IMG/VR virus record: IMGVR_UViG_3300046791_000074 | Span: 1 to 53,327 of that record | Direction: 5' to 3' (one strand) | DNA length: 53,327 nucleotides | From: a virus | Lineage: Duplodnaviria; Caudoviricetes | Shown here: positions 531-53,327 of the stretch, one piece after another | Position numbering within the stretch: the stretch's first letter is position 1 | How the letters are laid out: every line of letters begins with the position of its first letter | The notes under the pieces: model-generated | Databases searched by the model: none | Told to the model about the DNA's origin: nothing | Seen by the model: only the letters and a program-made list of their open reading frames with translations | Made by a program: the position numbers and the translations under genes

Positions 531-1652
531 TTAGTTCACCCCCGCCTGGTTGCCGTAGGAGTTGGTCGCGTAGTTCCGGTACGCGTCCGGGTTCTCCATC
601 GCCACCTTGCTGACGGCTTCGACGTAGGACAGCTTGGTGTCCTCCGTACGAGCCTTCGCGACGAGGTCGGAGAACGCCTTGATGGGATCGGCATCGCCCG
701 AACCGGTACGAGCCTGACCCTTCTCGCCCAGCTCCACGAAGCCGGTCTCGCCGAGGGCCTTGACCATGTCGAGCACGGCCTTGCCCTGGGCGTCGGGGCT
801 CTCGTGGAGGACGCGAGTCAGCACCTCGATGGTAGCCGCCGGAAGCGCGATGTGCTTCGTCCGGAGCTCCTCACCAAGCTGCGTGACGTTGTTGCGGACC
901 TCGGCCAGCCGGAGCGTGGCGGTGGTCTTCGCGTTGTCCTCCCGCAGCTGCTTCTGCTGCTCCATGAGGAGCTTGATCGCCGGGTTGGTCTCGGAGAGCT
1001 TCTGCAGCTCAGCGTCCGCGTCACTCAGAGTGATCGGAGGCTTGGTTGCCTTCTCCTGGAACTCCTTGATCTTGGCGAGCATGTCCTCTTCCGAGGCACC
1101 TTCCGCCAGACCCAGAAGTTCAGTGAACTTCTTCGGATCCATCTCGTTCCTTTCTTCTTCTGGGTCTTCGCCGGGATTCAGCATCTCGGAAAGATTGAGT
1201 GGTGAAAGGTCTTTCAGGAAGGGACGATTGGTGATAGCTCCACCCGAGAGTACATCCTGGAACACCGTCTTGCTCTTCGGGTGTTCCCACTCATCGAGGA
1301 ACTCGGGACTGAAGTACTTGTAGGCCTTCGACTTGATCTTCTGAACGGCATCTCCCGTCCACTCGACGAAGAGGTAAAGCCCATCCGCCCGGACTTCAGC
1401 GTTCTTGACCCATCCCGCAGCGTCACCGATTCGTGCCTTGTGATCGTAGTCGATGTCGGGATCGATGTCCCGCACCTTCTTGACGACACTTTCAGCGAAC
1501 CGGTTGAGGCGCTCCGTAGAGAAGTCAATCTCGCCGTACACGGGGTGCTGGTACTTGCCCTTGGTCATCGCATGGATCCAGGAGGAGGGAGTATCTCCCT
1601 CGCTCAGGACGACCTTGCTCAGGTCAACCAGGTAGCTCATCCGCTTGCTCAT
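531..1652 (-). CDS. Mu gpI-like prohead protease/scaffold
   Basis: DIDYDH...AAGWV...YKYFSPEF...GAITNRPFL protease motifs followed by a coiled-coil C-terminal scaffold region. Confidence 0.85.
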   Translation of the reverse strand: MSKRMSYLVDLSKVVLSEGDTPSSWIHAMTKGKYQHPVYGEIDFSTERLNRFAESVVKKVRDIDPDIDYDHKARIGDAAGWVKNAEVRADGLYLFVEWTGDAVQKIKSKAYKYFSPEFLDEWEHPKSKTVFQDVLSGGAITNRPFLKDLSPLNLSEMLNPGEDPEEERNEMDPKKFTELLGLAEGASEEDMLAKIKEFQEKATKPPITLSDADAELQKLSETNPAIKLLMEQQKQLREDNAKTTATLRLAEVRNNVTQLGEELRTKHIALPAATIEVLTRVLHESPDAQGKAVLDMVKALGETGFVELGEKGQARTGSGDADPIKAFSDLVAKARTEDTKLSYVEAVSKVAMENPDAYRNYATNSYGNQAGVN

Positions 1653-1759: not shown

Positions 1760-3847
1760 CTACGTGATGTGGCGGCCTTTGTTACCCGTAACAGTCCTGC
1801 CCGAGTTAGTTGTAACGTACTTCTTCTTATTGCCTACGGAGTAGAATGGTGGGACGAAGTGATAGACAATAGCCGTTATGGTGTCAGTGATGCCTACGAC
1901 CTCGCGGAAGTTCTTACCCTGTACCACTACCTGAGAGTCAGTAATGCCTACGACATCATCCGCTGACCTAGTCTTCAGAACTACCACGGTGACAGAGTCT
2001 GTAAGTCCAACAGCATCGTTGACAGGCTTGCTCACTAGAGCAGACATTGCGTCGCTAAGACTCAACAGGTCGCCGACAGGTGTACCGAAGGTAAGTCCTA
2101 CCTCGTCAGTGATACCTACAGCGTCGTACAAGATGTTGACTGATGCCCAGCTGGAGGTGATGGCATCCGAGATGCCGACGACATCATCTCTAGACGTACC
2201 GAATGCTAGCAGGACGCTATCTGTAAGGCCAACACCATCACTAACAGGCTTGCTGACTGTAACCGACATAGCATCGGTAATGCCAACCATATCATTGATC
2301 GTCGCACCGCTAGAGTCCGACTGGTCTACGACTAGCTGGTCTGTTAGTCCGACTGCATCGTTGATGGTGATGTTGTACGAAGCAACCTGAGTCACGATGT
2401 CAGTCAGGCCGACAGTATCACTCAACGCTAGGCCAGTGATCAGACTAGCGATGACAGAGTCAGTCAAGCCTACAGTATCGGCGACTACCTTACTCTGCGT
2501 AACCGATACCGTATCAGACAGACCAACAGTCTCCGCAATTACCTTGGACAGGATCAGTGCTGTCGTATCGGTAATGCCTACGGTGTCGTTCTGGGTTAGA
2601 CCCTTACCTGTCTCGACCGTGACGGAGTCAGTAATGCCTACGACGTCATCGACCTGCGACAAGAGTACGAACGAAGCTACTGCGGAATCGGTAATGCCTA
2701 CAGCATCACTGATAGCCTTCGACAAAGTTACTGCAACCGTATCCGACAAGCCTACAGTATCCTGAAGGCCTACAGTGATAGCGATGACAGTTACGTCTGT
2801 CAGGCCAACCGTATCACTGATCGGTACGGTCTTGGTTGCTGCGGCTGCATCAGACAGTCCTACAGTATCACTGATAGGTACGGACTTAGTTGCGGCTGCA
2901 GTATCTGTAATGCCGACGGCCTCGTTGGCTACGACCGAGATAGAGACAGCTATAGGGTCAGTAAGGCCAACGGTATCAGCTCGTCCTACACCAACCGTAA
3001 GAGCCATGGTCTCGGACAGGCCGACGGTGTCAGCTCGACCAGGACCAACAGTGATAGCCATGACATCAGACAGACCAACAGTATCCTGGACACCGTCGGT
3101 GATCTGGAGTGTGAAGTCTCCGGAGGTATCTGTAACGCCAATGGTATCGTTGACTGTTACAGTGAAGGCTGTCGAGAAGACCTTCGGACCAATAGCTGTA
3201 CTGGTACCGCTAGACGCTTTGACAGCATCTATCCAGTAGTCAGCAATGGTAGCAGTAGAGGACTTACCAATACCTAGATAGCGTCCTGTACCGCTAGTAG
3301 TGACCCCTGAGAACGAGATACTACTACCTGTCTCGGGTGTAGTACTTTGACCTAGGAAGGCTTGCAACGCCCCAGCAGTCGATGCAGTACCCAGACCTGA
3401 TGCCTGGTACTCTACTCTGTACAGGGTATTAGTTGACATCGTGAAGGTAGTAGTGGCTAGAGTTGTAGCACCGTCGGAGCTCTGCAGACGGAGACGGCCA
3501 TCTGTCAGCATCAATACCTGAATCATGTTCCCTGCGGCGGTACTGAAGATGCGCGTAGGGAAGTTTACAGTTGCACTAGGCAAGCCCGTAATGTAGATGT
3601 AGAACCTTACAGCAAAGGACGTAAAGCCATTCTCAATCTCGTACCGAATATAATTCGCTGCCGACGATGAGCTAGGAAACTTTATCGCCATCGTATCGCT
3701 AGCGGTATGATCGTCGTCGTAGGTGATCAGTCCTGCAGTACCAACTAGAGCGTCTACAATGGTGTCGCCAAAGTCGTCGCTGTTGGCAGTAGTCAGTGCT
3801 GAGGTATCAGTCTGACCTTCGTAGTTCGCTTCAATAGTAGCTGCCAT
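1760..3847 (-). CDS. Fibre-like protein: beta-rich N-domain plus about 23 D-x-V-G-[LI]-[TS]-D repeats
   Basis: 695 aa; the repeats recur every 18-22 aa from about residue 235 to near the C-terminus. Confidence 0.7.
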   Translation of the reverse strand: MAATIEANYEGQTDTSALTTANSDDFGDTIVDALVGTAGLITYDDDHTASDTMAIKFPSSSSAANYIRYEIENGFTSFAVRFYIYITGLPSATVNFPTRIFSTAAGNMIQVLMLTDGRLRLQSSDGATTLATTTFTMSTNTLYRVEYQASGLGTASTAGALQAFLGQSTTPETGSSISFSGVTTSGTGRYLGIGKSSTATIADYWIDAVKASSGTSTAIGPKVFSTAFTVTVNDTIGVTDTSGDFTLQITDGVQDTVGLSDVMAITVGPGRADTVGLSETMALTVGVGRADTVGLTDPIAVSISVVANEAVGITDTAAATKSVPISDTVGLSDAAAATKTVPISDTVGLTDVTVIAITVGLQDTVGLSDTVAVTLSKAISDAVGITDSAVASFVLLSQVDDVVGITDSVTVETGKGLTQNDTVGITDTTALILSKVIAETVGLSDTVSVTQSKVVADTVGLTDSVIASLITGLALSDTVGLTDIVTQVASYNITINDAVGLTDQLVVDQSDSSGATINDMVGITDAMSVTVSKPVSDGVGLTDSVLLAFGTSRDDVVGISDAITSSWASVNILYDAVGITDEVGLTFGTPVGDLLSLSDAMSALVSKPVNDAVGLTDSVTVVVLKTRSADDVVGITDSQVVVQGKNFREVVGITDTITAIVYHFVPPFYSVGNKKKYVTTNSGRTVTGNKGRHIT

Positions 3848-7049: not shown

Positions 7050-8540
7050 TCACTTATTGCCAGAACGGTCGGTTCCAGCGTTGCCGGCGGGGAGTTGTGC
7101 CTTCGCTTTAGGCTGCTGCCGCGGAGGCCCTGCCTCTGGTGCTTTACCCGCTCCAGGCTTGCCAGCCTCAGATTCCCCAGGTGCTTGGGGTGTCTCCGTC
7201 TTACGGATGGTTGCTTCATCCAAAGGAGGCAGGTCCATTTCATCACGGATGCTCGTCTCGAGCGGACCATCCGGCTGGATGATCCCCGCACCGACGAAGT
7301 TCCGGATGGCGAACGACAATGTGCGCCAGTCGGCAGATTCACCAATACGACGTGCCCTGATGTGTGGGTACTTCTTCACACCAGGGAAGTTGTAGTCGAC
7401 GAGTTCCTTGATCAGGTAGTCGTTGAAGGTCTGGCAGACGATGTCAGCAATGAACCTTGTCGCCTTGAGGAACATGTCCGAAGCAACATCCTGACTACCA
7501 CCCTCGGTAAGGAAGGATGCCAGGATCGACTTCTCGATCTGCTTGTCATGGTGCTCGATGCTCTTCAGGCAGTCAACGGGCTGCCCTTCGAGCTTCAACA
7601 TGATCAGTTCCCAGTTCGGCGGGAGCACAACGTGTGCACGCTCGTTCGTCCTGAGGTTACGTCCCATGTTCTCCGCCAGCATCTTGTCGTCGCTGCTGAA
7701 GCCTGGCGGAAGAGTAATCATGGGGATGCCGATGCCGTGGCGCTCTTTCTGGATGGCATCGATCTTGTACAGCGTCTCCTTGTAGTACCAGTGCTTGTAG
7801 GGCGTCCGGAGAAGAGACATGCCCTCGATGTTACCTGCCTCCTTGTCAAAGGAGAACACCAGCATCTTCTTGATGTCAATGCGGATCGGGTTGCCCAGGG
7901 GATTCGCAGAAGGCCACATCTCTACGGCCTTCGGTCCACCATTGGCGTCGTAGAACCATTCCTTCACGTCCATGGGGTGGCGCGGTCCGAGCTTCTTCAG
8001 GACCGTCCGCATCTTCCCCTCGACCATCCGGTTCTCCCAGACCTTCTCGTACATGTAGTAGCCGAACTCACACATGAGCAAGGCTTCCTGCAGTACCTGA
8101 GACCAGGAGATGGACATGTGCTCCGTGAAGCACTGCCAGACGAAGTCCGCAATCTTCTTGTCCTTGAGGCGAATCGTCTTCTCAGGACCGAATGTCGCAG
8201 GCTCCATAAACCAGCGCGCAGCAAGTACCGGAGTCTTAACGAGGCGAAGAGTTCCCCGTACAGTTCCATCCGACCGACGCATCTGGTCGTACTTCTGCAG
8301 ACCCTTGATGCCCTGAAGGTCTCGGTTGTACTCTGCACGAATGAAGGAGGTGAATGGTGAGGGCGAGCTGGTACCGAGTTCGCGAAGATCGACATCAGTG
8401 TCAACCGTCTCCCTGAATACCTTCGGCGTCACGACCATGAACGGCTCGGCGCCTTCGTCGTTGACGATGGAGACCAAGTCGAATCGGTCCATGACTTCGG
8501 CCAGCGTTGCGATCTCAGAGACCACAGAGGGCTCGCTCAT
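7050..8540 (-). CDS. Portal protein (Mu gp29/DUF935-like)
   Basis: 496 aa downstream of TerL; G.SLLR..YKHW.YK...D....ERHG.GIP motif. Confidence 0.9.
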   Translation of the reverse strand: MSEPSVVSEIATLAEVMDRFDLVSIVNDEGAEPFMVVTPKVFRETVDTDVDLRELGTSSPSPFTSFIRAEYNRDLQGIKGLQKYDQMRRSDGTVRGTLRLVKTPVLAARWFMEPATFGPEKTIRLKDKKIADFVWQCFTEHMSISWSQVLQEALLMCEFGYYMYEKVWENRMVEGKMRTVLKKLGPRHPMDVKEWFYDANGGPKAVEMWPSANPLGNPIRIDIKKMLVFSFDKEAGNIEGMSLLRTPYKHWYYKETLYKIDAIQKERHGIGIPMITLPPGFSSDDKMLAENMGRNLRTNERAHVVLPPNWELIMLKLEGQPVDCLKSIEHHDKQIEKSILASFLTEGGSQDVASDMFLKATRFIADIVCQTFNDYLIKELVDYNFPGVKKYPHIRARRIGESADWRTLSFAIRNFVGAGIIQPDGPLETSIRDEMDLPPLDEATIRKTETPQAPGESEAGKPGAGKAPEAGPPRQQPKAKAQLPAGNAGTDRSGNK

Positions 8541-9970
8541 CAGAAGACACCTCCTGTGGTGAACATTCCGCCATCTCCTGAACTGGATAGGTCTGTAGTG
8601 CCCATGGTGAACGACCCGCTGTCTGAGCCACCACTCTCTCCCTGATACACTTCACTCAGGTGGTGGTGCGCGCCCAGCTTAAACACGTGCATAAGGCCGT
8701 ACCGTAGAGCATCGAGTGCGTGATCCTCAACCTTGTTACCGAACTCGGGAACGTTGCGTCCCTTGACTGGAGCATTCGACTTGTAGTTGTTAAACTCGTG
8801 AATGAGCCATTTGCAACTGTGGTCGACAAGCATTCCTGTCGTAGTAAGCGGTGTTCCGTACTCGTCAGCAACCAGCCCCGTGTCTCGGTCCTTGAGGAAG
8901 CTGGCAACCAGATCGACTCCGTCACGCCAGTTCTCCTTGGCTTCAGGTAGTGTCCAGCAACCTACGAAGTCGATGGAGATGGCGATCCCGGCTTCGGGGT
9001 CTGCGGCATCTCCGAACGCCATGTCGAGGTGGTATCCTTCAGGCTGCTCTCGGCCCTTGAGGATCCGAATATGCTCGCCCAAGGTAGTGAAGGCCAAGTA
9101 ATGTTCACGCCACACCCTAATCTCATCCCACGGCGTGACCTGGAACTCGATCGCTGCCAGCGGGTTGGTGTATCCGAAGTCGAAGGCTATGTAGTTAGGC
9201 CACGCAGGGTTGAACTCAACCTTCCCCACATGCTTCGTAACATCCCACTCAGGATAGATCTTGCCGACGAAGCTAGAGAAGTCCGCCGCGATCTCCTGCA
9301 GGAACTGTTCAGGCCGCATCGTCCGGAGCAGTAGCTGAATCTCTGGATCATCGTATCCCCCCGGGTATACGGCTGAGTTGTCCCAGCTAGGAAAACGCCA
9401 GCTCTCGTAGTCCGGGAAGTCCGGATTCTGTCCTAGCATCCATTGGGTATACAGCCAGTTGAATCCCTCTGGCGTCGTTGGGAAATCTGCCGACCCACGT
9501 TTGTCCGCCAGTGCTGGACGGATGAACCTCTCCCATGTCTCTTCCTTGTGCTTGGCAGCTTCCGACATGATCACGTGGTCGAGTGCTTCACCGACCAGGT
9601 TCTCCGGGTGATCCGCGGACCGTACCTCAAGTCGCGTCTGCCACGGGAACTCGATGAACATGTGGCCTTGCTTTTTGTTATACGCCTTCTTCACACGGCT
9701 GTCACGGCCGAGCTGCTGCTTGACGATCAGGTCGTCCCAGAGAACCCGGAACTCCTTCTCGCCCAGGTCGTACGTTGGCCCGACGATCCAGAACATCTTG
9801 CCGGGCTCGAACATCTTCGGCTGCAGGTCCTTTGCAGCCATCGTGCTCTTACCGAATCGCCGTCCGCAGTTGGGCAGACGAAAGCGCGCCTTCGAGTCAT
9901 GGTACAGCGCCTGCCGTCCGTGCGGCCGGTACTTGATGAATTCGAAGTACTGCGCTCTCGTCCACGCCAT
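8540..9970 (-). CDS. terL: Terminase large subunit
   Basis: Walker A GRRFGKS, Walker B VIMSE, TTPEG motif, nuclease motifs DFGYTNP and DHALDALRY. Confidence 0.95.
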   Translation of the reverse strand: MAWTRAQYFEFIKYRPHGRQALYHDSKARFRLPNCGRRFGKSTMAAKDLQPKMFEPGKMFWIVGPTYDLGEKEFRVLWDDLIVKQQLGRDSRVKKAYNKKQGHMFIEFPWQTRLEVRSADHPENLVGEALDHVIMSEAAKHKEETWERFIRPALADKRGSADFPTTPEGFNWLYTQWMLGQNPDFPDYESWRFPSWDNSAVYPGGYDDPEIQLLLRTMRPEQFLQEIAADFSSFVGKIYPEWDVTKHVGKVEFNPAWPNYIAFDFGYTNPLAAIEFQVTPWDEIRVWREHYLAFTTLGEHIRILKGREQPEGYHLDMAFGDAADPEAGIAISIDFVGCWTLPEAKENWRDGVDLVASFLKDRDTGLVADEYGTPLTTTGMLVDHSCKWLIHEFNNYKSNAPVKGRNVPEFGNKVEDHALDALRYGLMHVFKLGAHHHLSEVYQGESGGSDSGSFTMGTTDLSSSGDGGMFTTGGVF

Positions 9971-11119: not shown

Positions 11120-11437
11120 ATGGACGAGCAGGCCACCACCACCGAAATCAACATCCGGGACTTCTTTGGCGACACGGTCACGGGGTACGGGTTGATCAAG
11201 GGGACCAACAAGGCCCTCGCCAGCCTGGGCGTCGAGAAGGTCTTGCCGGGCCCCATGGGCTACACGTACCTGAAGAAGGGTTACGTGGTCGAGGGAGTCA
11301 AGGACATCAAGTCCTGCACGGGCGACCAGGCGGCCGAGTGGGCCAGCAAGTACATCGCAAAGCTGGTCCTGAAGGCACAGAGCGTCCCGGTGAACGAGAT
11401 GCAGGAAGCACTGGACGCCCTGAACGACGAGGCCTGA
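11120..11437 (+). CDS. Putative HTH DNA-binding protein
   Basis: Good RBS; PGPMGYTYLKKG motif similar to those in 18116-18718 and 20110-20292. Confidence 0.65.
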   Translation: MDEQATTTEINIRDFFGDTVTGYGLIKGTNKALASLGVEKVLPGPMGYTYLKKGYVVEGVKDIKSCTGDQAAEWASKYIAKLVLKAQSVPVNEMQEALDALNDEA

Positions 11438-11441
11438 GCGG

Positions 11442-11485
11442 CTAAGGTGAGTGAGTCACTCAAGTGAGTGACTCACTTGCCTTAG
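11442..11485 (+). terminator. Long inverted repeat, terminator-like
   Basis: AGTGAGTCACTCA/TGAGTGACTCACT plus an outer CTAAGG/CCTTAG stem, directly after the stop codon. Confidence 0.55.
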
Positions 11486-11737
11486 ACACTCAGTCTAGAC
11501 GAGAGGTAGGGATCATGCGACACGAACGGATTGATCAGGCCATAGAGAAGTACGGGAAGGGGTTACTCACACTTCCCGAGTTCGTCGAGGAGGTTACCCT
11601 CGCCTTCGCAGTGTTCGACTGTGACTGCCTAGGGTGTTCGGTATAGTCGGGACCTAGGTGGACCTGGAGGTTGGTACCTCAGAAGGGGTGCCTTCCTCTA
11701 GGGCCACCAGGGTCCTAGAATACCACAGGGAGTCCTC

Positions 11738-12217
11738 ATGAGACTGGTTCTCACGTCCGCCTTCGTCGCTTCGGCCATCGCGATCGGGACGTTCGGGGTG
11801 GCGCAGGGTGCGAGTTCGACCCTTCCCGCCACTCCTACGGAGAAGCTTTCTACCGGGGCGAGCCTGCTCAGGCACTCGCTTCCGACCACCTACAAGAGCT
11901 GGGCGACCCAAGCCCAGTCGGTCACGATCTGCCGCGAGATGCGGTCGATGCCGACCAAGACCTGGGCCGACTGCCTCGTGGGCCACTACGAGGCGAAGAC
12001 GGGATACCGACTGAACGAGTACGAGTTCACGGCCAACAAGGTCAAGAACACCTTCAAGGTGACCTACTCGAAGATCACACTTCCCAAGGGAGGTCGGGCC
12101 CTCAAGAAGGTCGAGAAGGAGAGCCGCAAGCTCCCGACGAGCGTGTACTTCAAGACGTACGGTCTCGACAACGGTAGCCTGATCCTCGGGTCGAACGGTT
12201 CGTCGTACCAGGAGTGA
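11738..12217 (+). CDS. Exported protein with a signal peptide
   Basis: MRLVLTSAFVASAIAIGTFGVAQGA signal peptide (hydrophobic core ending in small residues); two Cys. Confidence 0.7.
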   Translation: MRLVLTSAFVASAIAIGTFGVAQGASSTLPATPTEKLSTGASLLRHSLPTTYKSWATQAQSVTICREMRSMPTKTWADCLVGHYEAKTGYRLNEYEFTANKVKNTFKVTYSKITLPKGGRALKKVEKESRKLPTSVYFKTYGLDNGSLILGSNGSSYQE

Positions 12218-12289
12218 TGTAGCAGGTAGGTGGGTAGTCGGAGCTACCCACCATCCTGTACCATCAGTCCCTTGACAACTTCACAGTGA

Positions 12290-12661
12290 CTAGGACTCCA
12301 TAGCCTTCCGAACGAGACGCATTAGTTCCGTCTCGACGGGATAGCGAACGGCCTCCTCATCGAGAGCCTGTAGCCAAGCCTCGTTCACATCGTAAACGTA
12401 AGCGGCCTGTTGGAACCTCACCAGGTCCTTGAGTCGAGCGACGGCATGCGGTCCCTTCTGCGAGACCAGGTTACACTTCTTGCAGTAACTATTGGGGCGT
12501 CCGTACTGCTTTCCGGTCTCAGGATCGCCCCACCAGATGTCCTTGAATGAGCTGATGCCGAACTCTACTTTAGCGGTGTAAAACTCTCCGATGAACTTCT
12601 CTCCCTTGCAGAGTCCGCATCGAACCTTACCGTCCTCGGTCATATCGTTTCTTCTGCTCAT
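12290..12661 (-). CDS. Zinc-finger protein (CxxC...CxxC)
   Basis: CGLCKGEKFIGEFY...SYCKKC; isolated minus-strand gene with its own promoter. Confidence 0.7.
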   Translation of the reverse strand: MSRRNDMTEDGKVRCGLCKGEKFIGEFYTAKVEFGISSFKDIWWGDPETGKQYGRPNSYCKKCNLVSQKGPHAVARLKDLVRFQQAAYVYDVNEAWLQALDEEAVRYPVETELMRLVRKAMES

Positions 12662-12667
12662 ACATCT

Positions 12668-12696
12668 ATTATAGCGTAGTCAACTCTAAATAGCAA
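12668..12696 (-). promoter_or_regulatory. Sigma70-type promoter, probably giving a near-leaderless mRNA
   Basis: TTGCTA-N17-TATAAT ending 6 nt before the ATG at 12661. Confidence 0.7.
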
Positions 12697-13075
12697 CTCG
12701 CGAGGTGAGTGAGACTCGGTTAGACGCCGAGAACGCCGATAACTCTCAATTGAGGAGCAGCCCTAGAAGACCGAGAGATCTATGGACATAGAGATAGTGA
12801 CAGTGGTAGTGACATAGACTAATATACTAATATATATACTACCTATAATATATAAGACCTATAACTAGACTTAACTCGCAAAATTCAGTGTCATTGACAG
12901 GGACCTAAGACCAACGCAGACGCTGGTAGCTAGTAATCCCCAGACGATCAAACGGTCGTAGACGCATCCCTAAATAAGCTTACGCGAATCTTAAGGTTAG
13001 CTTAAGAGAGCCTGAGATATACTTAAAAGAAACACCAAACATCTAATATCCTTACCACACCAACGAGGAGTGCAA

Positions 13076-14913: not shown

Positions 14914-15381
14914 ATGAACGACGAAGAGCTCCTGAAGAAGTACCCGGCTCTGAAGCAAGAGCTGCTCAAGAACTTCGAGGAGGACGACAGCGAGCACCAG
15001 GAAGTCGTCGCCAACATGACCAAGCAGGGCCTGTTGCCGAAGGGCATCACCGCTAAGGCGGAGGCCATCCTTTACGGAGGTGAAGGTCAGCCGACGTTGA
15101 CAGGGACACACCAGGAGATCGTGGACTCGGTGTTCGAGTCGCACTCGTACGGTGGTGAGTCGAAGTTCAAGCACAAGGCACTCGACCATCACTTGATCCT
15201 GATGCAGGTGGGACCTCACTCGGACAGCCCGTGGGTGGTCGTCAACCAGTCGTTCGACCTGGAGGAGATGGAGGAAGCAGTCCATACCCTCGACGAGGAG
15301 ATCGACGGTTACTTCGATCTTCGGCTGGTCACCGTGACCACTCAGGTGCTGGAGGAGGTACCAGTCGATGAGGGTCAGTAA
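14914..15381 (+). CDS. Hypothetical acidic protein
   Basis: Start MNDEELL after GGAGG. Confidence 0.65.
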   Translation: MNDEELLKKYPALKQELLKNFEEDDSEHQEVVANMTKQGLLPKGITAKAEAILYGGEGQPTLTGTHQEIVDSVFESHSYGGESKFKHKALDHHLILMQVGPHSDSPWVVVNQSFDLEEMEEAVHTLDEEIDGYFDLRLVTVTTQVLEEVPVDEGQ

Positions 15382-15634
15382 GATCGAGGGCAAGGAGCTG
15401 GCCGATGGTCAGGATCGCTACGAGCTGGAGAACCTGACCAAGCTCGATGCGATGACGATCATGGACGCCTTGAGAGGCAATCGACAGAACCTGTTGACCG
15501 AGATCAACAAGTCGGCCGCGATGGCTACGGAGACCGACGAGAGTCGGATGCTCGAGGACCTGGCCTTCCTGGGTGAGGTGCTCGGTCGAGTGTGCCGGAT
15601 GGAACTGCTACTGGGAGAGACGGTGGACCTGTGA
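15368..15634 (+). CDS. Hypothetical protein
   Basis: 88 aa with a GGAGG RBS. Confidence 0.6.
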   Translation: MRVSKIEGKELADGQDRYELENLTKLDAMTIMDALRGNRQNLLTEINKSAAMATETDESRMLEDLAFLGEVLGRVCRMELLLGETVDL

Positions 15635-16004
15635 GCCAGAAGGACGTGTTCATCACCATACAGGTGAAGCTGTCTGTTCCTTCAGACGGTGAGTACGACC
15701 AGGAGTCGTACTTCATTCCCATCAAGGAGGTGCTCGAGAATGCGGACATCTGGATGGACGTTGAGTCGGGTCACGTCTTCGACGAGGTTGACTCGATGGA
15801 GGTGACTCATGTCACTCCTCGAAGCCGCAGCGGCAGTTAGCTTCACCATCCTCGCCCTGTGGTCTCTGCTGACCTTGATACGCCGGTCGCCAGGGAGCAC
15901 GATCATGCGAGGCACGTTGGGGAATGTTCGACCTGAACAGACGATCCACGAACGGGATCACGTACGTCGATACCCGTACGACGACGGGCCCATCTGATCT
16001 AAGA

Positions 16005-16060
16005 GTCGAAACGCCGAGAGGCGTCGACCGGAATGGCTACCGGTCCTGAGGAGACAGCCA
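16005..16060 (+). ncRNA. Type II hammerhead ribozyme with pseudoknot
   Basis: GTC-GAA-ACGCC(GAGA)GGCGT-C^-GACCGG(AATGGCTA)CCGGTC-CTGAGGA-GAC-AGCCA: all core nucleotides and all three stems are present. Confidence 0.88.
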
Positions 16061-16072
16061 CAAGGAGAGACG

Positions 16073-16273
16073 ATGTCCAGGAAGTACATGGAAGAGAAGA
16101 AGGCAAAGAAGGCTGCGTTCTCACGAACGAACAAGCGTCGAGGGACGAAGGGTAAGCTGGCTCGCCAGGAAGCCTTGGTGGGCTACTACAAGCGCTACCG
16201 AAACGGTCGCAACATGAACAACCCTGCATACCTCGACCACCTAGCACAGCTGCGAGCCGACGACATGTTCTGA
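16073..16273 (+). CDS. Small basic protein downstream of the hammerhead
   Basis: 66 aa, Lys/Arg-rich, AAGGAG RBS. Confidence 0.7.
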   Translation: MSRKYMEEKKAKKAAFSRTNKRRGTKGKLARQEALVGYYKRYRNGRNMNNPAYLDHLAQLRADDMF

Positions 16274-16353
16274 TCTCACTGGCCGAGTTAGCGGTGTGCC
16301 ACTATAGCCTGAAGCTGTAGGGCGCACTGCTAGTTCTACCAAGGAGGAATGGA

Positions 16354-16914
16354 ATGAGAGCACTACTGTATCGTCCGCACTGGCAGTCGCTTCGGGTCTC
16401 CTTGCTGAAGGAGAACCGGAACGATGGTGGCTGGACGACGATGGAGGGCACTGAGGCCAACCTCAAGACCCTTCTGGACTACAACGTCTGCCCTGACCTC
16501 GCATCGTTCTCTCAGCGTCTCACTGAGGCAGAGGTGATGGGCTACCAGGAGAAGCACGAGATCGATGCGCGCCTCTACCGAACGATCAACTGCCTGAACG
16601 CTGTGCGGATGGGCAACTCAGGAATGGGTACCAAAGGCAGTCGGCAAGATGCCTTGGTGTTGGCTGCACGGAACTTCTACCAGGGTCGGCAGACAGCTAT
16701 GTACCATCAGTACTTGACGTACGCAGCTGTGCGTTGGGACTGGCGAGTGGTCGAGCGTGAGCTCCTGGAGATCTGGGACATGGGTGACTACCAGGGGAAC
16801 TTCGAACACATCGAGACGAACCTGAAGGCAAGGATGAAGGACAAGAAGAGTACGGCTCGACCGGAGCTCTTCACGTTCATGGCGCTGATGGAGAAGGTTC
16901 GTCTCGGTGGCTAA
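16354..16914 (+). CDS. Hypothetical protein
   Basis: 186 aa with an AAGGAGG RBS. Confidence 0.7.
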   Translation: MRALLYRPHWQSLRVSLLKENRNDGGWTTMEGTEANLKTLLDYNVCPDLASFSQRLTEAEVMGYQEKHEIDARLYRTINCLNAVRMGNSGMGTKGSRQDALVLAARNFYQGRQTAMYHQYLTYAAVRWDWRVVERELLEIWDMGDYQGNFEHIETNLKARMKDKKSTARPELFTFMALMEKVRLGG

Positions 16915-17230
16915 GCCGAAGATGCCTTGGGTTCGGATGGCTTGCTTCTTGCCGTTCGCACTGATCGAGGTCGCAGCTAGCTTAGCCGTCCTGGCTACAG
17001 GTATACCGTTCCTGTTCCCGATCAGCATCGCACTACTGCTACTGGCAGGAGTACCGTACGCCAAGTGGTTGTCGAAGCACATCAACGACTCCGTGGCGTA
17101 CGAGTTCAGAGACCACTCACTCAACGAGGGCGAAGAGAAGCCCTGGGAGAGTGAGGACGGAAGTGTCACCGAGGACGAGATGCTGGACATCATCCTCAAC
17201 TCCGACGGACGAGGGAGTATCAACCCATGA
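16907..17230 (+). CDS. Membrane protein
   Basis: Two hydrophobic segments and an acidic tail. Confidence 0.65.
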   Translation: MAKPKMPWVRMACFLPFALIEVAASLAVLATGIPFLFPISIALLLLAGVPYAKWLSKHINDSVAYEFRDHSLNEGEEKPWESEDGSVTEDEMLDIILNSDGRGSINP

Positions 17231-17592
17231 ATGATCAAGTCATCGACCAGGACGGAAATGATCTGAGGATCATGACCGACCACGAGAGTCCGATGTTCAG
17301 TCAGCTGATCGTCGACTGGTTCTCGGGTATGCCCGTCGAGCAGCAGATCGACTGGCTCAAGCTGATCGGTGTGCCGCACGATCGACGTGAGGCTTACATC
17401 CAGGCCATCGCTGGTCGACCGGTCGCCATCAGTACGACGACACCAGCAGCGTTGACGTCAAGCCTTCCGATCATCACTGAGGTCGACATCACACCGACGA
17501 TGGCGATCGAGGGTGCACCGGGACAGGATCGGCCGATGCCTCAGGTGGGCAGTCGTCAGCCGAAGGTCGTTCAGAGCAAGCGCCTGAGCTAG
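17227..17592 (+). CDS. Hypothetical protein
   Basis: 121 aa, ATGA overlap with the upstream gene. Confidence 0.6.
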   Translation: MNDQVIDQDGNDLRIMTDHESPMFSQLIVDWFSGMPVEQQIDWLKLIGVPHDRREAYIQAIAGRPVAISTTTPAALTSSLPIITEVDITPTMAIEGAPGQDRPMPQVGSRQPKVVQSKRLS

Positions 17593-17760
17593 TGCTCGTG
17601 GCATCTTCACGATGTGAAGATGCTACTGGTTCTACCTAAGGAGGAGTCATGGCAAAGTTCCCCAACTGGGATCACAGCGAAGGCATCTACAGGCCTGAGC
17701 CGAACATCTCGGAGCAACTGGATGCAGTTGCCGACCTACTGGAAGAGGAGGAAGAGGACA

Positions 17761-18718: not shown

Positions 18719-18852
18719 CCTAGGGGCACCCCTCGAGTGTTGGATCCGGCAAGGGACAGCTTGAGGGACTAGGTTACTCAGAGTGTAAGCCGGGTGTGTG
18801 TACCAGAGGATAGATGGTCTCCGTCCTCCGAGGAAAGCACCCGGCTTACACT
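18713..18852 (+). other. Two tandem long RNA hairpins
   Basis: GAGTAACCTAG/CTAGGTTACTC (18713/18769) and AGTGTAAGCCGGGTG/CACCCGGCTTACACT (18782/18838). Confidence 0.7.
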
Positions 18853-19833: not shown

Positions 19834-19964
19834 AGATCAGGATCTGGAAGTGGGAGTATGACGTTCGTAAGGGCGACGTCATGCTTCTGCTATCTTCCCT
19901 TACCTGGATCGGCATAGTGCTCTTCGTACTTTTCCTCATGCTCGTTCTAAATGAGCTACTCAGC

Positions 19965-20075
19965 TGAGACTAGTAGTTAGACCGCTGAGACCTAAGGTTA
20001 GACTCGTTGGAATAGCTGGTCTAGTACTAGTTATCGAGCTGAGGATCTTGCTAGTTAGACTCTCAGCTAGACTGA
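19965..20075 (+). repeat. TTAGAC/TGAGAC intergenic element, copy A
   Basis: Hexamers at 19965, 19977, 19986 and 19998; homologous to 39990-40095 and 49103-49123. Confidence 0.8.
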
Positions 20076-20486: not shown

Positions 20487-22049
20487 ATGAGAGAGAAGTT
20501 CCAGCTGTCGAAGTTCCAGATCGAAGACACGATCAGGATTGTCAAGGCTGGAAGCGGTGCGAACGGCTCCGAGATGGGTAGTGGTAAGACCCACGTAGGG
20601 ATTGCCTGTGACACGATCTGGTACAAGACGGCCAAGGTCAAGTCACCGACACTAGTCGTTGCACCTATCAACGTCTTCCAGTCCTGGGTTGACAAGTACA
20701 AGTGGCAGTCACCTGAGACAGAAGTGTTCGTGATCGACCGTAAGAACCGCCCGGCTTTCATCGAGGCCATCAAGAAGGGTAAGGCGGATGTCTACATCTG
20801 TCACTGGGACGCGCTCCGACTTCTTCCGGAGCTCAGCAAGATCCGCTTCAATACCGTCATCGCGGATGAAGCCCACCGCGCCTCGAATCGGAAGGCGCAA
20901 GCGACCCAGGCACTCAAGCGTATCCCAACCGTACATAAGCTGGCTCTGTCTGGCACTCTTAGTGGCGATCAGCCTCAAAATCTCTGGTCGGTACTGAACT
21001 GGCTTTGGCCTAAGGTGTACTCCAGCTTCTGGAAGTTCGACAAGCACTACGTTATCAGAGGCATGGACGCTACAGGTAGCTACATGGTCGTCAAGGGTGT
21101 ACAGAACGCTCAGGCTCTGAAGAAGGAGATGAGTCCGTGGTTCGTTCGACACCTGAAGAAGGAACAGTGCTGCCCGGACCACCCCGATGGCGTCATGTCG
21201 TACTTGCCGGACAAGACGTACGACACAGTGTGGGTGGATCTGTCACCAGAACAGCGCCGAGTGTACAAGCAGATGTCGGAACAGATGGTAGCCTGGGTGA
21301 ACGAGAACCAGTCTACTCCGCTGGTTGCAGCAGTTGCCGTTGCCAAACTAACTCGGCTGAGTCAAATTGCACTCGCTACACCAGAGATCCGAGTAGAGAC
21401 GAAACGCCGTAAGGTGAAGCGGTGGGCTATTGCTTCGACGGGTGAGCTGATCAAGACACGTGACCAGTACAACGACCTCCTGTCGAACAAGGTACCGGTG
21501 AAGAGGATCGATGTGCTCGAGCCGTACGAAGCTCAGGTCGTCTACCTCAAGCTGCCGAGTACCAAGGTCGAAGCAGTGCTGGACATCCTCAAGGAACACC
21601 CAGAGAAGAAGTTCGTCCTGTGGTCAGCTTCCAAGAAGATGTGCTACCTGTTGCAGAAGGCTCTACTGGATCACAAGATCAAGGCACACGTCCTCAGCGG
21701 AGACACTCCACAGGGGCAGCGTGACTCGATGCTGGCGAACTGGCAGACGGACGACTACCAGGCATTCATTGGTGTCATCTCTGCTGCTGGTGAAGGCATC
21801 GACGGACTCCAGCTGACGAGCGACACAGCTATCTTCCTGGACCGAGACTGGTCGACCAAGGCGAACAAGCAGGCCGAGGATCGTCTGCATCGACCAGGAC
21901 AGAAGAACAACGTCAACATCATCGACATCATGGCCAAGGATACCGTGGACCTCGGACGCCATACCCGCCTCGCTGAGAAGTGGGAATGGATCAGAGCGAT
22001 CCTCGGAGACAAGGTCAACCAGAAGACTGGGGAGATCAAAGCCGCATGA
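20487..22049 (+). CDS. SNF2-family helicase
   Basis: EMGSGKT, DEAH, LSGT, GEGIDGL and QAEDRLHRPGQ motifs. Confidence 0.93.
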   Translation: MREKFQLSKFQIEDTIRIVKAGSGANGSEMGSGKTHVGIACDTIWYKTAKVKSPTLVVAPINVFQSWVDKYKWQSPETEVFVIDRKNRPAFIEAIKKGKADVYICHWDALRLLPELSKIRFNTVIADEAHRASNRKAQATQALKRIPTVHKLALSGTLSGDQPQNLWSVLNWLWPKVYSSFWKFDKHYVIRGMDATGSYMVVKGVQNAQALKKEMSPWFVRHLKKEQCCPDHPDGVMSYLPDKTYDTVWVDLSPEQRRVYKQMSEQMVAWVNENQSTPLVAAVAVAKLTRLSQIALATPEIRVETKRRKVKRWAIASTGELIKTRDQYNDLLSNKVPVKRIDVLEPYEAQVVYLKLPSTKVEAVLDILKEHPEKKFVLWSASKKMCYLLQKALLDHKIKAHVLSGDTPQGQRDSMLANWQTDDYQAFIGVISAAGEGIDGLQLTSDTAIFLDRDWSTKANKQAEDRLHRPGQKNNVNIIDIMAKDTVDLGRHTRLAEKWEWIRAILGDKVNQKTGEIKAA

Positions 22050-24083: not shown

Positions 24084-25358
24084 ATGCCAGTGGACTTCAA
24101 CTGGTACGTGGACCGTCGCCTTGTGCATGAGTTCCATACGTCCGAGCGGAAGTCATTCCGAGGCTGCCGTCGTCGATGGGACTGGGTCTTCCGTGAGGGC
24201 TTCTACCCGAAGATCACCCCCAAGCAGTTGGACTTCGGTACGGCCTATCACAAGGGTGAGGAGGTGTACTATGCACCAGAGACCTGGAGTCTCCCTCGTG
24301 GTCCCGTCCTCGAGCTAGCGATCAAGGCCTTCAAGGACAAGAACAACGAGCAGCGCGCCGCAGCCCACGACGCTCTGATGTACAAGACACCTGAAGAGAT
24401 CGATCAGGACTTCAACGATAGACGTGAGCTCGGTATCGGTATGCTTCGGTACCAGCACGACGTCATTAGCCCGAAGGAAGACCAGGACTGGAAGCCCGTC
24501 CGTGTCGAGATCCCCTTCATGGTTCCGATTCCCCATCCGGATACCAAGGAGCACATGTGGTGTGAGTGCGACGCCTGCAAGCACAAGTACATTGCATGGC
24601 TGCACAAGATGGCAGAAGAGGAAGGCATTACCAGTACACCTCCCACCTTCGAAGACTACGACTGGAAAGGGTCTAAGGTCTGGAAAGGTCTGCCGGTTGT
24701 CTACGCAGGTCGTATTGACTGTCTGGGGGAAGACGACAACGGTGACCTATGGATCATCGATTGGAAGACCGCAGCTCGTATCCCGGATGACCATTCGTTC
24801 CTCGACCTTGACGACCAGGTTGCCTCGTACTGCTGGGCTCTGTGGTCTATTGGAATGAACGTTCGCGGGTTCATCTACCACGAACAGAAGAAGGGGTACC
24901 CGCTACCCCCTCCCAAGAACAAGAACGTTCGGTTGGGTCGATCCTACTCGGTCAAGGCCGACATGGACACCGACTACGAGATGTACCTGAAGACCGTTAG
25001 CGAGGGCGACCAGACAGCCTACAAGGTCGGACTGTATGATACGTACCTCAACTACCTCAAGGTAGAGGGTGCAACCTTCTACTACAGGGAGCAGATCTAC
25101 AAGACCGAGGACGAGCTCTTGAATGTCCAGGAGAACCTTGGCCTGGAAGTGTTGGACATGCTAGCAGCTGACCTCCGCATCTATCCTAACCCGCACAGGT
25201 CTGGTTGGGGAGGTTGTAGCGGCTGTGCATTCATTCAGCCCTGCACCGAGAAGAACCGTGGCGGAGACTATCAGTACGGCCTCGAGACCATGTACGATCG
25301 ACGTGAGGCGTACTACCTTCGTGAAGAGCCTTCTACGGATAAGAAGAGTGCAGAATGA
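24084..25358 (+). CDS. PD-(D/E)XK (Cas4/RecB-like) exonuclease
   Basis: CRRRW...FGTAYH...VEIPF...GRIDCL...IIDWKT...QVASY...CSGCAF..PC. Confidence 0.9.
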   Translation: MPVDFNWYVDRRLVHEFHTSERKSFRGCRRRWDWVFREGFYPKITPKQLDFGTAYHKGEEVYYAPETWSLPRGPVLELAIKAFKDKNNEQRAAAHDALMYKTPEEIDQDFNDRRELGIGMLRYQHDVISPKEDQDWKPVRVEIPFMVPIPHPDTKEHMWCECDACKHKYIAWLHKMAEEEGITSTPPTFEDYDWKGSKVWKGLPVVYAGRIDCLGEDDNGDLWIIDWKTAARIPDDHSFLDLDDQVASYCWALWSIGMNVRGFIYHEQKKGYPLPPPKNKNVRLGRSYSVKADMDTDYEMYLKTVSEGDQTAYKVGLYDTYLNYLKVEGATFYYREQIYKTEDELLNVQENLGLEVLDMLAADLRIYPNPHRSGWGGCSGCAFIQPCTEKNRGGDYQYGLETMYDRREAYYLREEPSTDKKSAE

Positions 25359-30311: not shown

Positions 30312-32549
30312 ATGGACTTGCTGTCGAGAGCTTCTGACGAAGCTCGTGAGGCATTCCTTCACGCTGCGTTCGGTACGAGTAGAGGTTACGTTGCGCTAGC
30401 GTTCCTCACACCAGACAAGTCGAACTTCTTCGAAGAGTACTTTATGTACCCAGGAGAGGTACCCGAACTCCTCATGGCTGTGAAGCAACGGTTCGCTTCG
30501 CACAACGTATACATCTGTCCGCAACTGTTCGCCAGTAAGCGAAGGAAAAAGGAAGAGGTCGTATCCACTCCTACAGCCTGGGCGGACTTGGACACTTGTC
30601 ATCCAGACAAGATGCTCCGCAAGCCCTCCCTGATCATCGAATCGTCCGCCAATAGATGGCAGGCCCTGTGGACTCTGGATAGCGTAGAAGCCGACGATGC
30701 AGAACGTATCTCCAAGCGCATCGCCTACTACCACGCCCCAGATGGTGCTGACCGCTCCGGTTGGGACCTAACGCAGTTGCTCCGCATGCCGCTGACGTAC
30801 AACTTCAAGTACAATGCGGTGCAGGGCGAACAGCAGATCGTCTACCTCCGAGAGTTCCACCGCAGCTCGTACCGCCTGAAAGACTTCGAGTGCTACCCAG
30901 CTCAGGCTGAGTCAGACGTAGACATCATCCCGATGCCTGAAGCAGCTGACCTTCCCGAGACAGCTGAAGAGCTCTTGCAGGCGAAGAGTCGAATGATGAA
31001 CCCCCGGATCTGGCAGCTATACAATACAGAGCCAGATGATGACTGGAGCAAGCCGCTCTGGGAACTTCACATGATGCTCTTCGAGGCAGGCTTCAACCGC
31101 GAAGAGTCGTACGTCATCGCACGTGAAGCGAAGTGTAACAAGTACGTACGGGATCAACGTTCACTCAGATTGCTGTGGAAGGAAGTACTCAGAGCTCATG
31201 CACGGGGTGAAGCTACTGCCGGACTCTTGGAAGTACCTCAAGGGCCTGAGCGCACTACCCTCCTCACTGAAGAGGAGCAAGACCAGGTACGACGTCAGCC
31301 AGAGTCTTTCGTCGAACGCTACATCACTTGGGCCCGGGGCCTGGGAGATGCTGCACACCAGTACCATCAAGCAGGTGCATTTATCATCCTGTCAACGTTG
31401 CTCTCAGGCAACGTTCGACTTCCTACCAGCTTCGGAACGTTCATCCCTAACCTCTGGTTCATGATCCTTGCAGACACAACGCTGACACGTAAGACGACGG
31501 CGATGGACATCGCCATGGATCTGATCGCCGACTTGGACAGCGATGCCATCCTAGCTACGGATGGTAGCATCGAGGGGCTCATGACCTCGTTGTCACTTCG
31601 GCCAGGACGTCCGAGCATCTTCCTTCGTGACGAGTTCTCCGGCCTGCTGGACTCCATGACCAAGAAGGACTACTACGCAGGCATGGCGGAGGTGTTCACA
31701 AAATTATACGACGGGAAGATGCAGAAGAGAGTCCTCCGCAAAGAGATCTTGGAGGTGCGCGATCCGCGGTTGATCTTGTTCGCTGGTGGCATCAAGAACA
31801 AGGTCACGGGTCTATTGACCTTCGAACAGGTCTCTTCGGGCTTTATGCCTCGCTTCATCTTCATCACAGCCGAGTCGGATGTGACGAAGCTCAAGCCGCT
31901 AGGGCCGCCAACAGATGGAACGCTCAACAACAGGCAGCTGATCCTGGACGAGATGGAGGACTTGCAAGCGCACTACCAGGTGATGACTACGACGACTCTG
32001 AAGAACGTCCCGGGGAGCAAGATCGAGATTCCTCAGATGTGGGACGCTCAGATGACCGACGCAGCATGGCTGAGGTACAACGAGTTGGAAGTCCGCATGT
32101 TGGAAGCTGGGACTGCGAGTGAGTTCCGAGCCGACGTCCTCACACCTACCTACGACCGACTCAGCAAGTCGATCCTTAAGGCAGCTGTTCTCTTGGCTGC
32201 CTCCCGTAGCAGAGCAGAGCAGATTGTTGTCGAACTCGATGATGTGCTTCGGGCTATCCATTACGGAGAGCAGTGGAAGATCCACGCCGATGATGTCATG
32301 GCTAACATCGGCAAGACTACCTACGAGCGACAGATCGTCAACATCCACAGAATGATCTGGCGTAAGCCGGGATGTAGTCGTTCGACAGTCATGCAGCATT
32401 ACCACCTCAATGCCAAAGTCACCACAGAGGTGTTTCAGACTATGGAGCAGCGCGGCCTCATGGTCATTAGACGGACAGGTAAGACAGAGCAGCTCTACCC
32501 CACACAGGTAGCCCCACCAGAGGAGTACAATGGAAACCAGCCAGCCTAG
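30312..32549 (+). CDS. RepB-type (AEP) primase fused to a DUF3987-like helicase
   Basis: WADLD, IESSANRWQALW and LLRMP...NFKY in the N-domain; TRKTT, RDEF and SGFMPRF in the C-domain. Confidence 0.85.
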   Translation: MDLLSRASDEAREAFLHAAFGTSRGYVALAFLTPDKSNFFEEYFMYPGEVPELLMAVKQRFASHNVYICPQLFASKRRKKEEVVSTPTAWADLDTCHPDKMLRKPSLIIESSANRWQALWTLDSVEADDAERISKRIAYYHAPDGADRSGWDLTQLLRMPLTYNFKYNAVQGEQQIVYLREFHRSSYRLKDFECYPAQAESDVDIIPMPEAADLPETAEELLQAKSRMMNPRIWQLYNTEPDDDWSKPLWELHMMLFEAGFNREESYVIAREAKCNKYVRDQRSLRLLWKEVLRAHARGEATAGLLEVPQGPERTTLLTEEEQDQVRRQPESFVERYITWARGLGDAAHQYHQAGAFIILSTLLSGNVRLPTSFGTFIPNLWFMILADTTLTRKTTAMDIAMDLIADLDSDAILATDGSIEGLMTSLSLRPGRPSIFLRDEFSGLLDSMTKKDYYAGMAEVFTKLYDGKMQKRVLRKEILEVRDPRLILFAGGIKNKVTGLLTFEQVSSGFMPRFIFITAESDVTKLKPLGPPTDGTLNNRQLILDEMEDLQAHYQVMTTTTLKNVPGSKIEIPQMWDAQMTDAAWLRYNELEVRMLEAGTASEFRADVLTPTYDRLSKSILKAAVLLAASRSRAEQIVVELDDVLRAIHYGEQWKIHADDVMANIGKTTYERQIVNIHRMIWRKPGCSRSTVMQHYHLNAKVTTEVFQTMEQRGLMVIRRTGKTEQLYPTQVAPPEEYNGNQPA

Positions 32550-39697: not shown

Positions 39698-39993
39698 GAG
39701 GTCAGGCAAGTAAGACCGGCGACACGAAGACTGCCCGCAACGGATACCACTACACTCGGACAGAGGACAGGTGGCGACTCACTCATCACATCGTTGCGGA
39801 GACCAAGCTCGGAAGGTCACTCAAAGAGAGCGAGCGAGTGACCTTCAAGGATCGGAACCGGAAGAACTTGGATCCGGACAACCTGATCGTCGTAGTGAAA
39901 GGTGCCACGACTGTTGCTCGGGAGCGTGCCAGATTGGAAGCTCGCATTGCGGAGTTACAAGCACAGCTGAGAGAGCTGCTCGAGAGTCCTTAG
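39694..39993 (+). CDS. Degenerate HNH-like protein with a C-terminal coiled coil
   Basis: HHIVAE..LGRSL...ERVTFKDRNRKNLDPDNL. Confidence 0.7.
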   Translation: MRGQASKTGDTKTARNGYHYTRTEDRWRLTHHIVAETKLGRSLKESERVTFKDRNRKNLDPDNLIVVVKGATTVARERARLEARIAELQAQLRELLESP

Positions 39994-53291: not shown

Positions 53292-53327
53292 AGCGTTTTA
53301 CCTCCCTTCCTGTTAGTAAGTGCCGCC

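Follow-up and report, generated by a model that had tools for sequence, protein, structure and literature searches.

Type II hammerhead ribozymes cut RNA after nucleotide C17 and leave a 2′,3′-cyclic phosphate and a 5′-hydroxyl (5′-OH) end, and their pseudoknot is required for fast cleavage at physiological Mg2+, as given in the text of Perreault et al. (PMC3088659). That paper, published in 2011, already described the class with its pseudoknot, its habitat in phages, and the proposed role of cutting long phage transcripts into gene-length messenger RNAs (mRNAs), and a 2019 review describes the role of bacterial and phage hammerheads as only suggested (PMC6765202). Three type II hammerheads of Desulfovibrio vulgaris, located near phage-like genes, cleave in vivo according to cyPhyRNA-seq results (PMC8782182). 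Here, we analyzed a type II hammerhead in the virus record IMGVR_UViG_3300046791_000074. The window, meaning the whole stretch of DNA that was analyzed, is the complete genome of a tailed phage; it is 53,327 bases long and carries a direct repeat of 127 nucleotides (nt) at its two ends (1–127 = 53201–53327). Judging from the sequence, the element is likely to be a genuine, probably active type II hammerhead that serves as an intercistronic processing site in an operon of the plus-strand arm, which is plausibly early, as judged by gene order only. To the published picture, we add a quantified stop–ribozyme–start layout, the contrast between its presence here and its absence in a close relative, an adjoining hairpin that pairs with a Shine–Dalgarno sequence, and Streptomyces phages with many copies.

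Structurally, the ribozyme does not differ from the pseudoknotted type II class (RF02276) as described in PMC3088659: the core, the permuted topology, the short open stem II, and the pseudoknot directly after stem II are the same, and the bacterial/prophage habitat and the proposed role are common to both. What distinguishes the window is its setting, a single copy in an uncultured phage, upstream of an open reading frame (ORF) that is an ORFan. The prophage clusters of Agrobacterium tumefaciens, Azorhizobium caulinodans, and Clostridium scindens in the same text are likewise intergenic, lie on the gene strand, and flank single small genes of varying identity. However, they are arrays of several ribozymes, whereas the window has one, and the downstream boundary of its cistron is a long hairpin. 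The D. vulgaris hammerheads (PMC8782182) belong to the same family, also lie near phage-like genes, and cleave in cells, but they come from another organism. In the haloviruses HF1 and HF2, the hammerhead HHphage lies 13 nt upstream of an early-gene start in a polycistronic early transcript, a 5′ end of which was mapped near the cleavage site (PMC3088659). Unlike the ribozyme analyzed here, which is located between two ORFs, HHphage belongs to an archaeal virus, is a core variant, and lies at the first ORF of its transcript.

A sequence-only reading of the locus had proposed a type II hammerhead 47 nt upstream of a small basic ORF, with a pseudoknot between loop I and the 3′ tail. The Rfam Hammerhead_II scan that it had suggested returned a match of 40.1 bits, above the gathering score of 37, and the positions it gave for the stems, core, cleavage triplet, and Shine–Dalgarno sequence were each confirmed by reading them directly from the sequence (Table 1). 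The 47 nt form the leader between the predicted cut and the ATG of an ORF of 66 amino acids (aa) with an isoelectric point (pI) of 10.5. The E-value of the match is 8.8e-5 for the whole window on both strands, multiplied by 4227 Rfam families, and 2.1e-8 for the Hammerhead_II family alone, which gave matches in 0 of 14 control genomes. Both Rfam and a covariance model of our own found one hammerhead copy in the whole genome, and no further RNA family was credibly matched in the 53-kb genome when Rfam was scanned permissively (E up to 5).

The conserved core, C3 to A9 plus G12-A13-A14, is present at all positions and aligns to the core of the Rfam model. The N-U-H triplet is present with its A15.1-U16.1 pair (A16011-U16024), and the core-adjacent pairs 10.1-11.1 (G16053-C16007) and 1.1-2.1 (G16026-C16045) are intact; broken pairs at these places are a rule for rejection in the text of Perreault et al. 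(PMC3088659). The topology is type II, with loops closing stems I and III and an open stem II holding the RNA ends. The proposed loop-I/3′-tail pseudoknot was borne out as well, with five Watson–Crick pairs (criterion, at least four) at offset 0 directly after stem II, in a helix that covaries in the family.

That covariation was measured in viral contigs. A pattern spanning C11.1 through A9 and using the stem III of the window was scanned over the IMG/VR viral contigs, and at least 118 stretches with such ribozymes were found; re-extraction gave 134 pattern matches, counting the window together with the retrieved loci. Our own covariance model, built from 15 sequences chosen because their stems and pseudoknot were well formed, that of the window among them, gave 164 matches (E up to 0.001) in the window and 98 loci (942,627 bases), with the known site as the only match in the window, and 38 more matches in 25 further sources. 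In the alignment of the best 150 of the 164 matches (148 distinct), 94.1% of the cells pair compared with 68.9% in shuffles, a value reached in 0 of 500, and slid partners pair in 24–44%. Changes on both sides were seen at 18 of the 19 pairs across the 148 distinct sequences; all six pairs of stem I covary, as does the stem II pair of the window, whose GUC/GAC type occurs at 13 of 129 family sites. Since the three stems were fitted to the model, their pairing percentages lean towards it. The pseudoknot helix was left out of the model, so the alignment was not fitted to it; this helix is 74% paired and shows double changes at all five pairs. Furthermore, in an alignment-free comparison, 52 of 80 loops formed at least four Watson–Crick pairs with their own tail, whereas in 1000 permutations of the tails the number averaged 13.9 and never exceeded 24. 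Among stem II lengths in the family, 3 base pairs (bp) is the most frequent (63 of 129 sites). Pseudoknotted members most often combine, as the window does, a 3-bp stem II, nothing inserted after A9, and a 6-bp stem I (12 sites), and the pseudoknot of this architecture likewise starts directly after stem II.

Two side observations concern other ribozymes in these contigs. At 13 of the 129 viral sites (L008, L014, L024, L045, L055, L059, L068, L082, L085, L088, L103, L112, and L116), stem I is short, there is no pseudoknot, and the 3′ tail matches the reverse complement of the core CUGANG exactly, compared with a mean of 4.8 and a maximum of 10 sites for permuted tails. Such a tail may form a hairpin that masks the catalytic core; the ribozyme of the window has no such tail. 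The viral contig L007 carries a type-P5 twister ribozyme (1434–1487, minus strand; 64.9 bits) and, about 500 nt away on the same strand, a type II hammerhead.

How are these ribozymes placed between genes? In the window, the ribozyme lies on the same strand as the flanking genes and fills the short gap between two cistrons. For the family, 126 sites were clustered for near-duplicates to 116, and 106 of these had a stem I of at least 5 bp and a stem II of at least 2 bp; genes were called for these counts by simple ORF rules, not by a gene finder. A stop codon that ends an open frame of 40 codons or more lies within 15 nt before C11.1 at 97 of the 106 ribozymes (92%), compared with 256 of 2120 random same-strand positions (12%) and 20 of 106 antisense sites. 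Similarly, a Shine–Dalgarno sequence with a start and an ORF of at least 40 aa follows within 40 nt after A9 at 67 of 106 ribozymes (63%), compared with 230 of 2120 random (11%) and 10 of 106 antisense sites. Both the upstream stop and the downstream start are found at 61 of 106 ribozymes, against 27 of 2120 and 1 of 106, respectively. The flanks are unbiased because the pattern held nothing outside C11.1 to A9.

The 5′ flank consensus before C11.1 is U-A-A/G-G-C, so the stop codon usually touches stem II, and the median distance from the stop to the ribozyme is 2 nt (all 123 usable sites). On the other side, 39 of the 49 sites with a pseudoknot of at least four pairs have a start within 60 nt. 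At these 39 sites, the gap from the pseudoknot end to the Shine–Dalgarno sequence has a median of 6 nt (6 nt or less at 20 of them), and the cut-to-start leader has a median of 57 nt (range 47–86), the 47 nt of the window being the shortest. The downstream ORFs are small (median 101 aa, n = 90). In the 150-match alignment, whose loci span at most ~15 kb, 69 of 95 sources have a single copy and 26 have several, never on mixed strands and with a median spacing of 557 nt.

Table 1. Features of the ribozyme locus and of the genome (positions in the window; aa, amino acids; MFE, minimum free energy).
Feature	Position	Strand	Remarks
Type II hammerhead ribozyme, whole Rfam match	16004–16063	+	RF02276, 40.1 bits
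Stem II, 5′ strand GUC	16005–16007	+	Pairs with GAC 16053–16055; G10.1-C11.1 = 16053-16007
G12-A13-A14 and A15.1 (GAAA)	16008–16011	+	
Stem III	16011–16015 / 16020–16024	+	ACGCC/GGCGU, GAGA tetraloop 16016–16019; A15.1 = 16011, U16.1 = 16024
Cleavage triplet GUC	G16023-U16024-C16025	+	C17 = 16025; predicted cut 16025/16026
Stem I	16026–16045	+	GACCGG 16026–16031 / CCGGUC 16040–16045; 6 bp, 8-nt loop AAUGGCUA
Catalytic core CUGAGGA (C3-A9)	16046–16052	+	
Stem II, 3′ strand GAC, then pseudoknot strand AGCCA	16053–16060	+	AGCCA 16056–16060 pairs with loop UGGCU 16034–16038
Shine–Dalgarno sequence AAGGAG	16062–16067	+	1 nt past pseudoknot strand, 5 nt ahead of ATG 16073
Upstream 62-aa ORF	15809–15997	+	Stop TGA 15995–15997, 6 nt before Rfam match, 9 nt before C11.1
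66-aa basic ORF	16073–16273	+	pI 10.5, ORFan; start 9 nt past Rfam match; strong Shine–Dalgarno sequence
Long near-perfect hairpin after 66-aa ORF	16268–16356	+	MFE −44.4 kcal/mol, z −6.1, 0/200 shuffles as good
186-aa ORF	16354–16914	+	55–56% aa identity in relative
Head protease	531–1652	−	
Mu-like portal	7050–8540	−	
Large terminase	8540–9970	−	
Many small ORFs of unknown function	~11.7 to 41 kb arm	+	Upstream of helicase/replication genes
SNF2 helicase	20487–22049	+	
PD-(D/E)XK nuclease	24084–25358	+	
RepB-type primase	30312–32549	+	
UDG-PolA fusion	36711–39089	+	
Tape measure	46107–48365	−	
Tail proteins		−	Structural arm
Major head protein	52287–53291	−	

If the element is an intercistronic processing site, stems I and III would form after transcription, the 3-bp stem II would close, and the pseudoknot would line up stems I and II, upon which the RNA would cut itself after C16025. 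The upstream product would retain the stop of the 62-aa ORF and end in the stem III hairpin with a 2′,3′-cyclic phosphate, and the downstream product would begin with a 5′-OH at the stem I hairpin/pseudoknot, with a leader of 47 nt ahead of the 66-aa ORF and a free Shine–Dalgarno sequence. In the predicted folds of the cleavage products, the upstream RNA ends 3′ in the stem III hairpin, the downstream RNA starts with the stem I hairpin, and the Shine–Dalgarno sequence is unpaired in the minimum-free-energy (MFE) structure of the 3′ product. The fate of the 66-aa cistron and the following genes, in stability and translation, would then be uncoupled from that of the upstream cistrons. Because both products are hairpin-ended in the type II topology, this could explain why the permutation suits intercistronic sites. 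The cutting of a polycistronic RNA, the role that the sequence-only reading had envisaged, fits the anatomy here and at more than 100 viral sites; transcription, cleavage, and any consequence for expression are inferred. The effect of a 5′-OH end on RNA decay depends on the host ribonucleases (RNases), so that expression of the 66-aa gene could be changed in either direction.

Two other systems offer parallels. In the early genes of phage T7, intercistronic cuts at RNase III hairpins leave hairpin-ended, separately stable mRNAs. The likeness is one of function only, as the T7 sites are cut by a host protein enzyme with another end chemistry, whereas the element of the window would self-cleave; the early arm of the window also holds at least five long hairpins. 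RiboJ-type insulators consist of an engineered hammerhead from a satellite RNA with an added hairpin, placed just upstream of the ribosome binding site, and they keep the leader constant. The hammerhead likewise lies ahead of the ribosome binding site in the window, and insulation by natural phage elements is putative.

Several results weigh against an active processing site. The Rfam score is only 3 bits above the cut-off. The nested fold alone only modestly beats shuffled sequences (z −1.98; 9 of 200 shuffles equally good), and the significance is therefore carried by the covariance model and the intact core. In the 146-nt context, the MFE structure favors an extended stem III, in which GUCGA (16005–16009) pairs with UCGAC (16024–16028) and which is predicted to mask stem II, G12/A13, and the cleavage site. 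Only 11 of the 20 pattern matches tested (19 loci) reached the Rfam gathering score, so the context statistics include sites below that threshold. A promoter/terminator consensus scan of the window gave sites no more frequently than in shuffles, and no promoter was mapped. Last, the closest relative lacks the element. This relative, a complete genome of 53,200 bp (L002/L121/L123) with an SNF2 protein 81% identical, was the one close relative found by a protein search via SNF2, and no hammerhead was detected in it (Rfam, E up to 1; own covariance model). In it, no spacer separates the ortholog of the 62-aa ORF (3128–3304, 36% aa identity) from the next ORF, an unrelated acidic one of 59 aa whose start the ortholog overlaps. 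The ribozyme is thus dispensable for this phage type.

Other searches reached little beyond this relative. The 186-aa and 66-aa proteins found no relatives in viral contigs; an alignment of 186-aa orthologs found the same relative and one distant locus (L122, 34% identity) in viral contigs and the same relative only in metagenome contigs, and no hammerhead was found in the distant locus. Covariation, which the sequence-only reading had named as a check in related phages, is present family-wide in the stems and pseudoknot; of the locus itself, the protein-guided relative searches found no orthologous copy, and the close relative has no ribozyme. The surroundings are syntenic in the close relative, with orthologs of the 88-, 82-, and 62-aa ORFs 31–37% identical and of the 186-aa ORF 55–56% identical. 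The hairpin that follows the 66-aa ORF is also kept there (3496–3582), with 84% nt identity and a compensatory apical stem, ahead of an extra 82-aa gene. By synteny, the ribozyme and the 66-aa ORFan stand in for a different small gene between conserved flanks.

Could the ribosome switch the ribozyme? A ribosome that terminates or initiates occupies at least a dozen nucleotides past its codon. Terminating ribosomes or 30S loading would then compete with stem II and the pseudoknot, the extended stem III would be the off state, and cleavage would report on, or be tuned by, translation. Such gating agrees with the stops within 15 nt of C11.1 at most sites, their median distance of 2 nt and the U-A-A/G-G-C flank, with the median of 6 nt between the pseudoknot and the Shine–Dalgarno sequence, with the leader of the window at the short end of its range, and with the alternative fold predicted in the window. 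However, plain genome economy equally predicts tight packing of stop, ribozyme, and start. Furthermore, the in-frame stop of the window is 9 nt from C11.1 and so lies outside stem II, and the alternative structure is, for the pseudoknotted subclass, a prediction in the window. We consider this translational switch unlikely, and a cleavage that reports on or is tuned by translation unlikely to the same degree.

The flanks of the family members bear on another explanation. When 400-nt flanks from different loci were compared by tblastx, 37 pairs shared the upstream flank, 25 the downstream flank, and 19 both. One flank only was shared by 24 of the 43 pairs, of which 18 (3 related groups) shared the upstream and 6 (6 groups) the downstream flank. 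The ribozymes often sit at mosaic junctions. A ribozyme travelling as a cassette with its downstream gene received no support from this test, as upstream-only pairs outnumber downstream-only pairs by 18 to 6 and the order is reversed, 3 to 6, by groups. Could the element, then, mark or promote mosaic gene exchange itself, persisting because it insulates a new gene or offers a short recombination sequence, with any effect on expression secondary? The single-flank pairs are in keeping with this, as are the small size of the downstream genes and the exchange seen at the locus itself, where the ribozyme and the 66-aa ORFan face a non-homologous 59-aa ORF in the relative between syntenic flanks and hairpin. 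The genes flanked by hammerheads also vary in the clusters described in the text of Perreault et al. (PMC3088659). On the other hand, mosaicism is common to small early phage genes whether or not a ribozyme is present, and the flank comparison gave a mixed result once pairs were counted by independent groups. We regard the idea as quite unlikely.

Very unlikely is an inactive relic or chance match, a motif whose RNA has no useful cleavage rate in the host: the near-cut-off score, the competing predicted fold, the relative without the element, and the strong loss of activity that extra base pairs in stem I or II can cause (per the text of PMC3088659; stem II here has 3 bp) would suit it, but every core position and core-adjacent pair conforms, the E-value is low even after correction for the window and all families, a 3-bp stem II is the commonest in the family, and an exactly typical gene context is unexpected for a chance match.

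Taking the element as an intercistronic processing site, we also put forward, as a tentative possibility, that hammerheads of this kind act as a punctuation module. Their 5′ edge would be the upstream stop and their pseudoknot would abut the next Shine–Dalgarno sequence, so that ribosome traffic gates folding, and the short structured 5′-OH leader, uniform for every downstream gene, would be a natural insulator at mosaic junctions; here, together with the conserved hairpin at 16268–16356, the module would release a single-gene mRNA of ~310 nt for the basic ORFan protein. For annotation, the gain is that a ribozyme, not a protein gene, occupies 16004–16063 and that the predicted mRNA 5′ end is 16026. 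The tight stop–ribozyme–start layout at ~100 viral sites sharpens the hypothesis on the role of these elements. In our literature search, we found no statement of the stop/Shine–Dalgarno layout around phage hammerheads and no report of hammerheads in Streptomyces phages; the terms "stop codon" and "Shine-Dalgarno" are absent from the text of PMC3088659, whose supplementary alignments or context figures may show the layout or similar phage cases.

Such phages were found by short blastn of the ribozyme against GenBank phages, with matches in intergenic DNA of Streptomyces phages. Caelum (NC_054666.1) has 10 Hammerhead_II matches, 5 of them over the Rfam cut-off, and Marav (OQ995441.1) has 14, of which 11 are over the cut-off; in both, the matches lie in the right arm on one strand (43.4–49.0 kb, L124, and 40.8–49.7 kb, L126, respectively). 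Three weak matches were found in Wentworth. In two annotated 3-kb stretches, 5 and 5 matches lie in gaps between annotated small genes, where they begin 0–16 nt past a stop or end 10–21 nt ahead of a start. The matches in Caelum and Marav point to a cultured system in which the hypothesis can be tested. As a side observation, Caelum gp79 (30 aa, L124 2471–2563) is almost fully covered by a Hammerhead_II match (2485–2549, 51.8 bits); because the match lies inside the ORF, the annotation is doubtful, and gp79 is more likely a ribozyme than a gene.

Of the genes next to the ribozyme, the 62-aa ORF has a weak codon score (+0.008 bits/codon in frame). The 66-aa ORF scores +0.49 bits/codon in frame compared with −0.44 and −0.62 off frame, and the accepted genes of the window score 0.32–0.55. 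Antisense ORFs across the ribozyme site appear non-coding by the same scores. The 66-aa protein matches no Pfam or PHROG family; it matched itself alone among 1.84 billion cluster representatives, its Atlas look-alikes score 0.80, which is the noise level, and it has no tblastn match in any locus retrieved. A TAA at 16000–16002 was considered as the stop of the upstream gene and rejected, as it is out of frame and the in-frame stop is the TGA. This TAA lies 4 nt ahead of C11.1, where many family members carry the stop of the upstream gene, and it may remain from an earlier context or serve as a stop in other frames.

The hairpin downstream of the 66-aa ORF is a single copy in the window with no Rfam match, and a second ribozyme as the downstream boundary of the ORF was rejected, since the element there is simply a long hairpin. 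In its outer helix, UCUC (16274–16277) is paired with GAGG (16344–16347) of the Shine–Dalgarno sequence of the next gene. From this predicted structure, the hairpin is a possible RNase III-type processing or translational-control site bounding the 66-aa cistron, and, more speculatively, the 66-aa gene would end up on a transcript of ~310 nt if a second, enzyme-dependent cut were made there. Four further long intergenic hairpins are located in the plus-strand arm (11434–11493, 12211–12270, 17583–17641, and 18782–18852, plus strand), with arms of 15–29 nt, MFE values of −36 to −46 kcal/mol, and z of −3.0 to −5.9. The one at 17583–17641 ends in GGUUCUACCUAAGGAGG, which resembles the 3′ side of the hairpin at 16268–16356. 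This suggests that the long hairpins of the window are a family of structures adjoining ribosome binding sites.

In the genome as a whole, the ribozyme is located among the small ORFs of the plus-strand arm, a run that leads into the SNF2, nuclease, primase, and PolA genes. Cultured phages are distant, with less than 36% aa identity to the nearest for both capsid and PolA; a DNA search of 15000–17500 against GenBank phages gave no match, and no tRNA genes were found in the window. An ORF-poor stretch of ~800 nt at 12270–13070, without a convincing ORF and in a region of lower GC content (0.525 for 12–14 kb), contains the only plus-strand sigma-70-like site of the consensus scan (12797–12825) and is a candidate regulatory region for the plus-strand arm. 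Two intergenic 58-nt repeats rich in TTAGAC-like motifs (19964–20021 and 39989–40046, plus strand) lie at both ends of the replication block, and four copies of a 19-nt motif are found close to the minus-strand structural genes (1740, 10265, 44152, and 50163); both are candidate promoter or operator sites. Finally, a 695-aa ORF on the minus strand (1760–3847), the sole match of which is a PHROG of unknown function, contains many 54-nt periodic repeats of families D1–D6.

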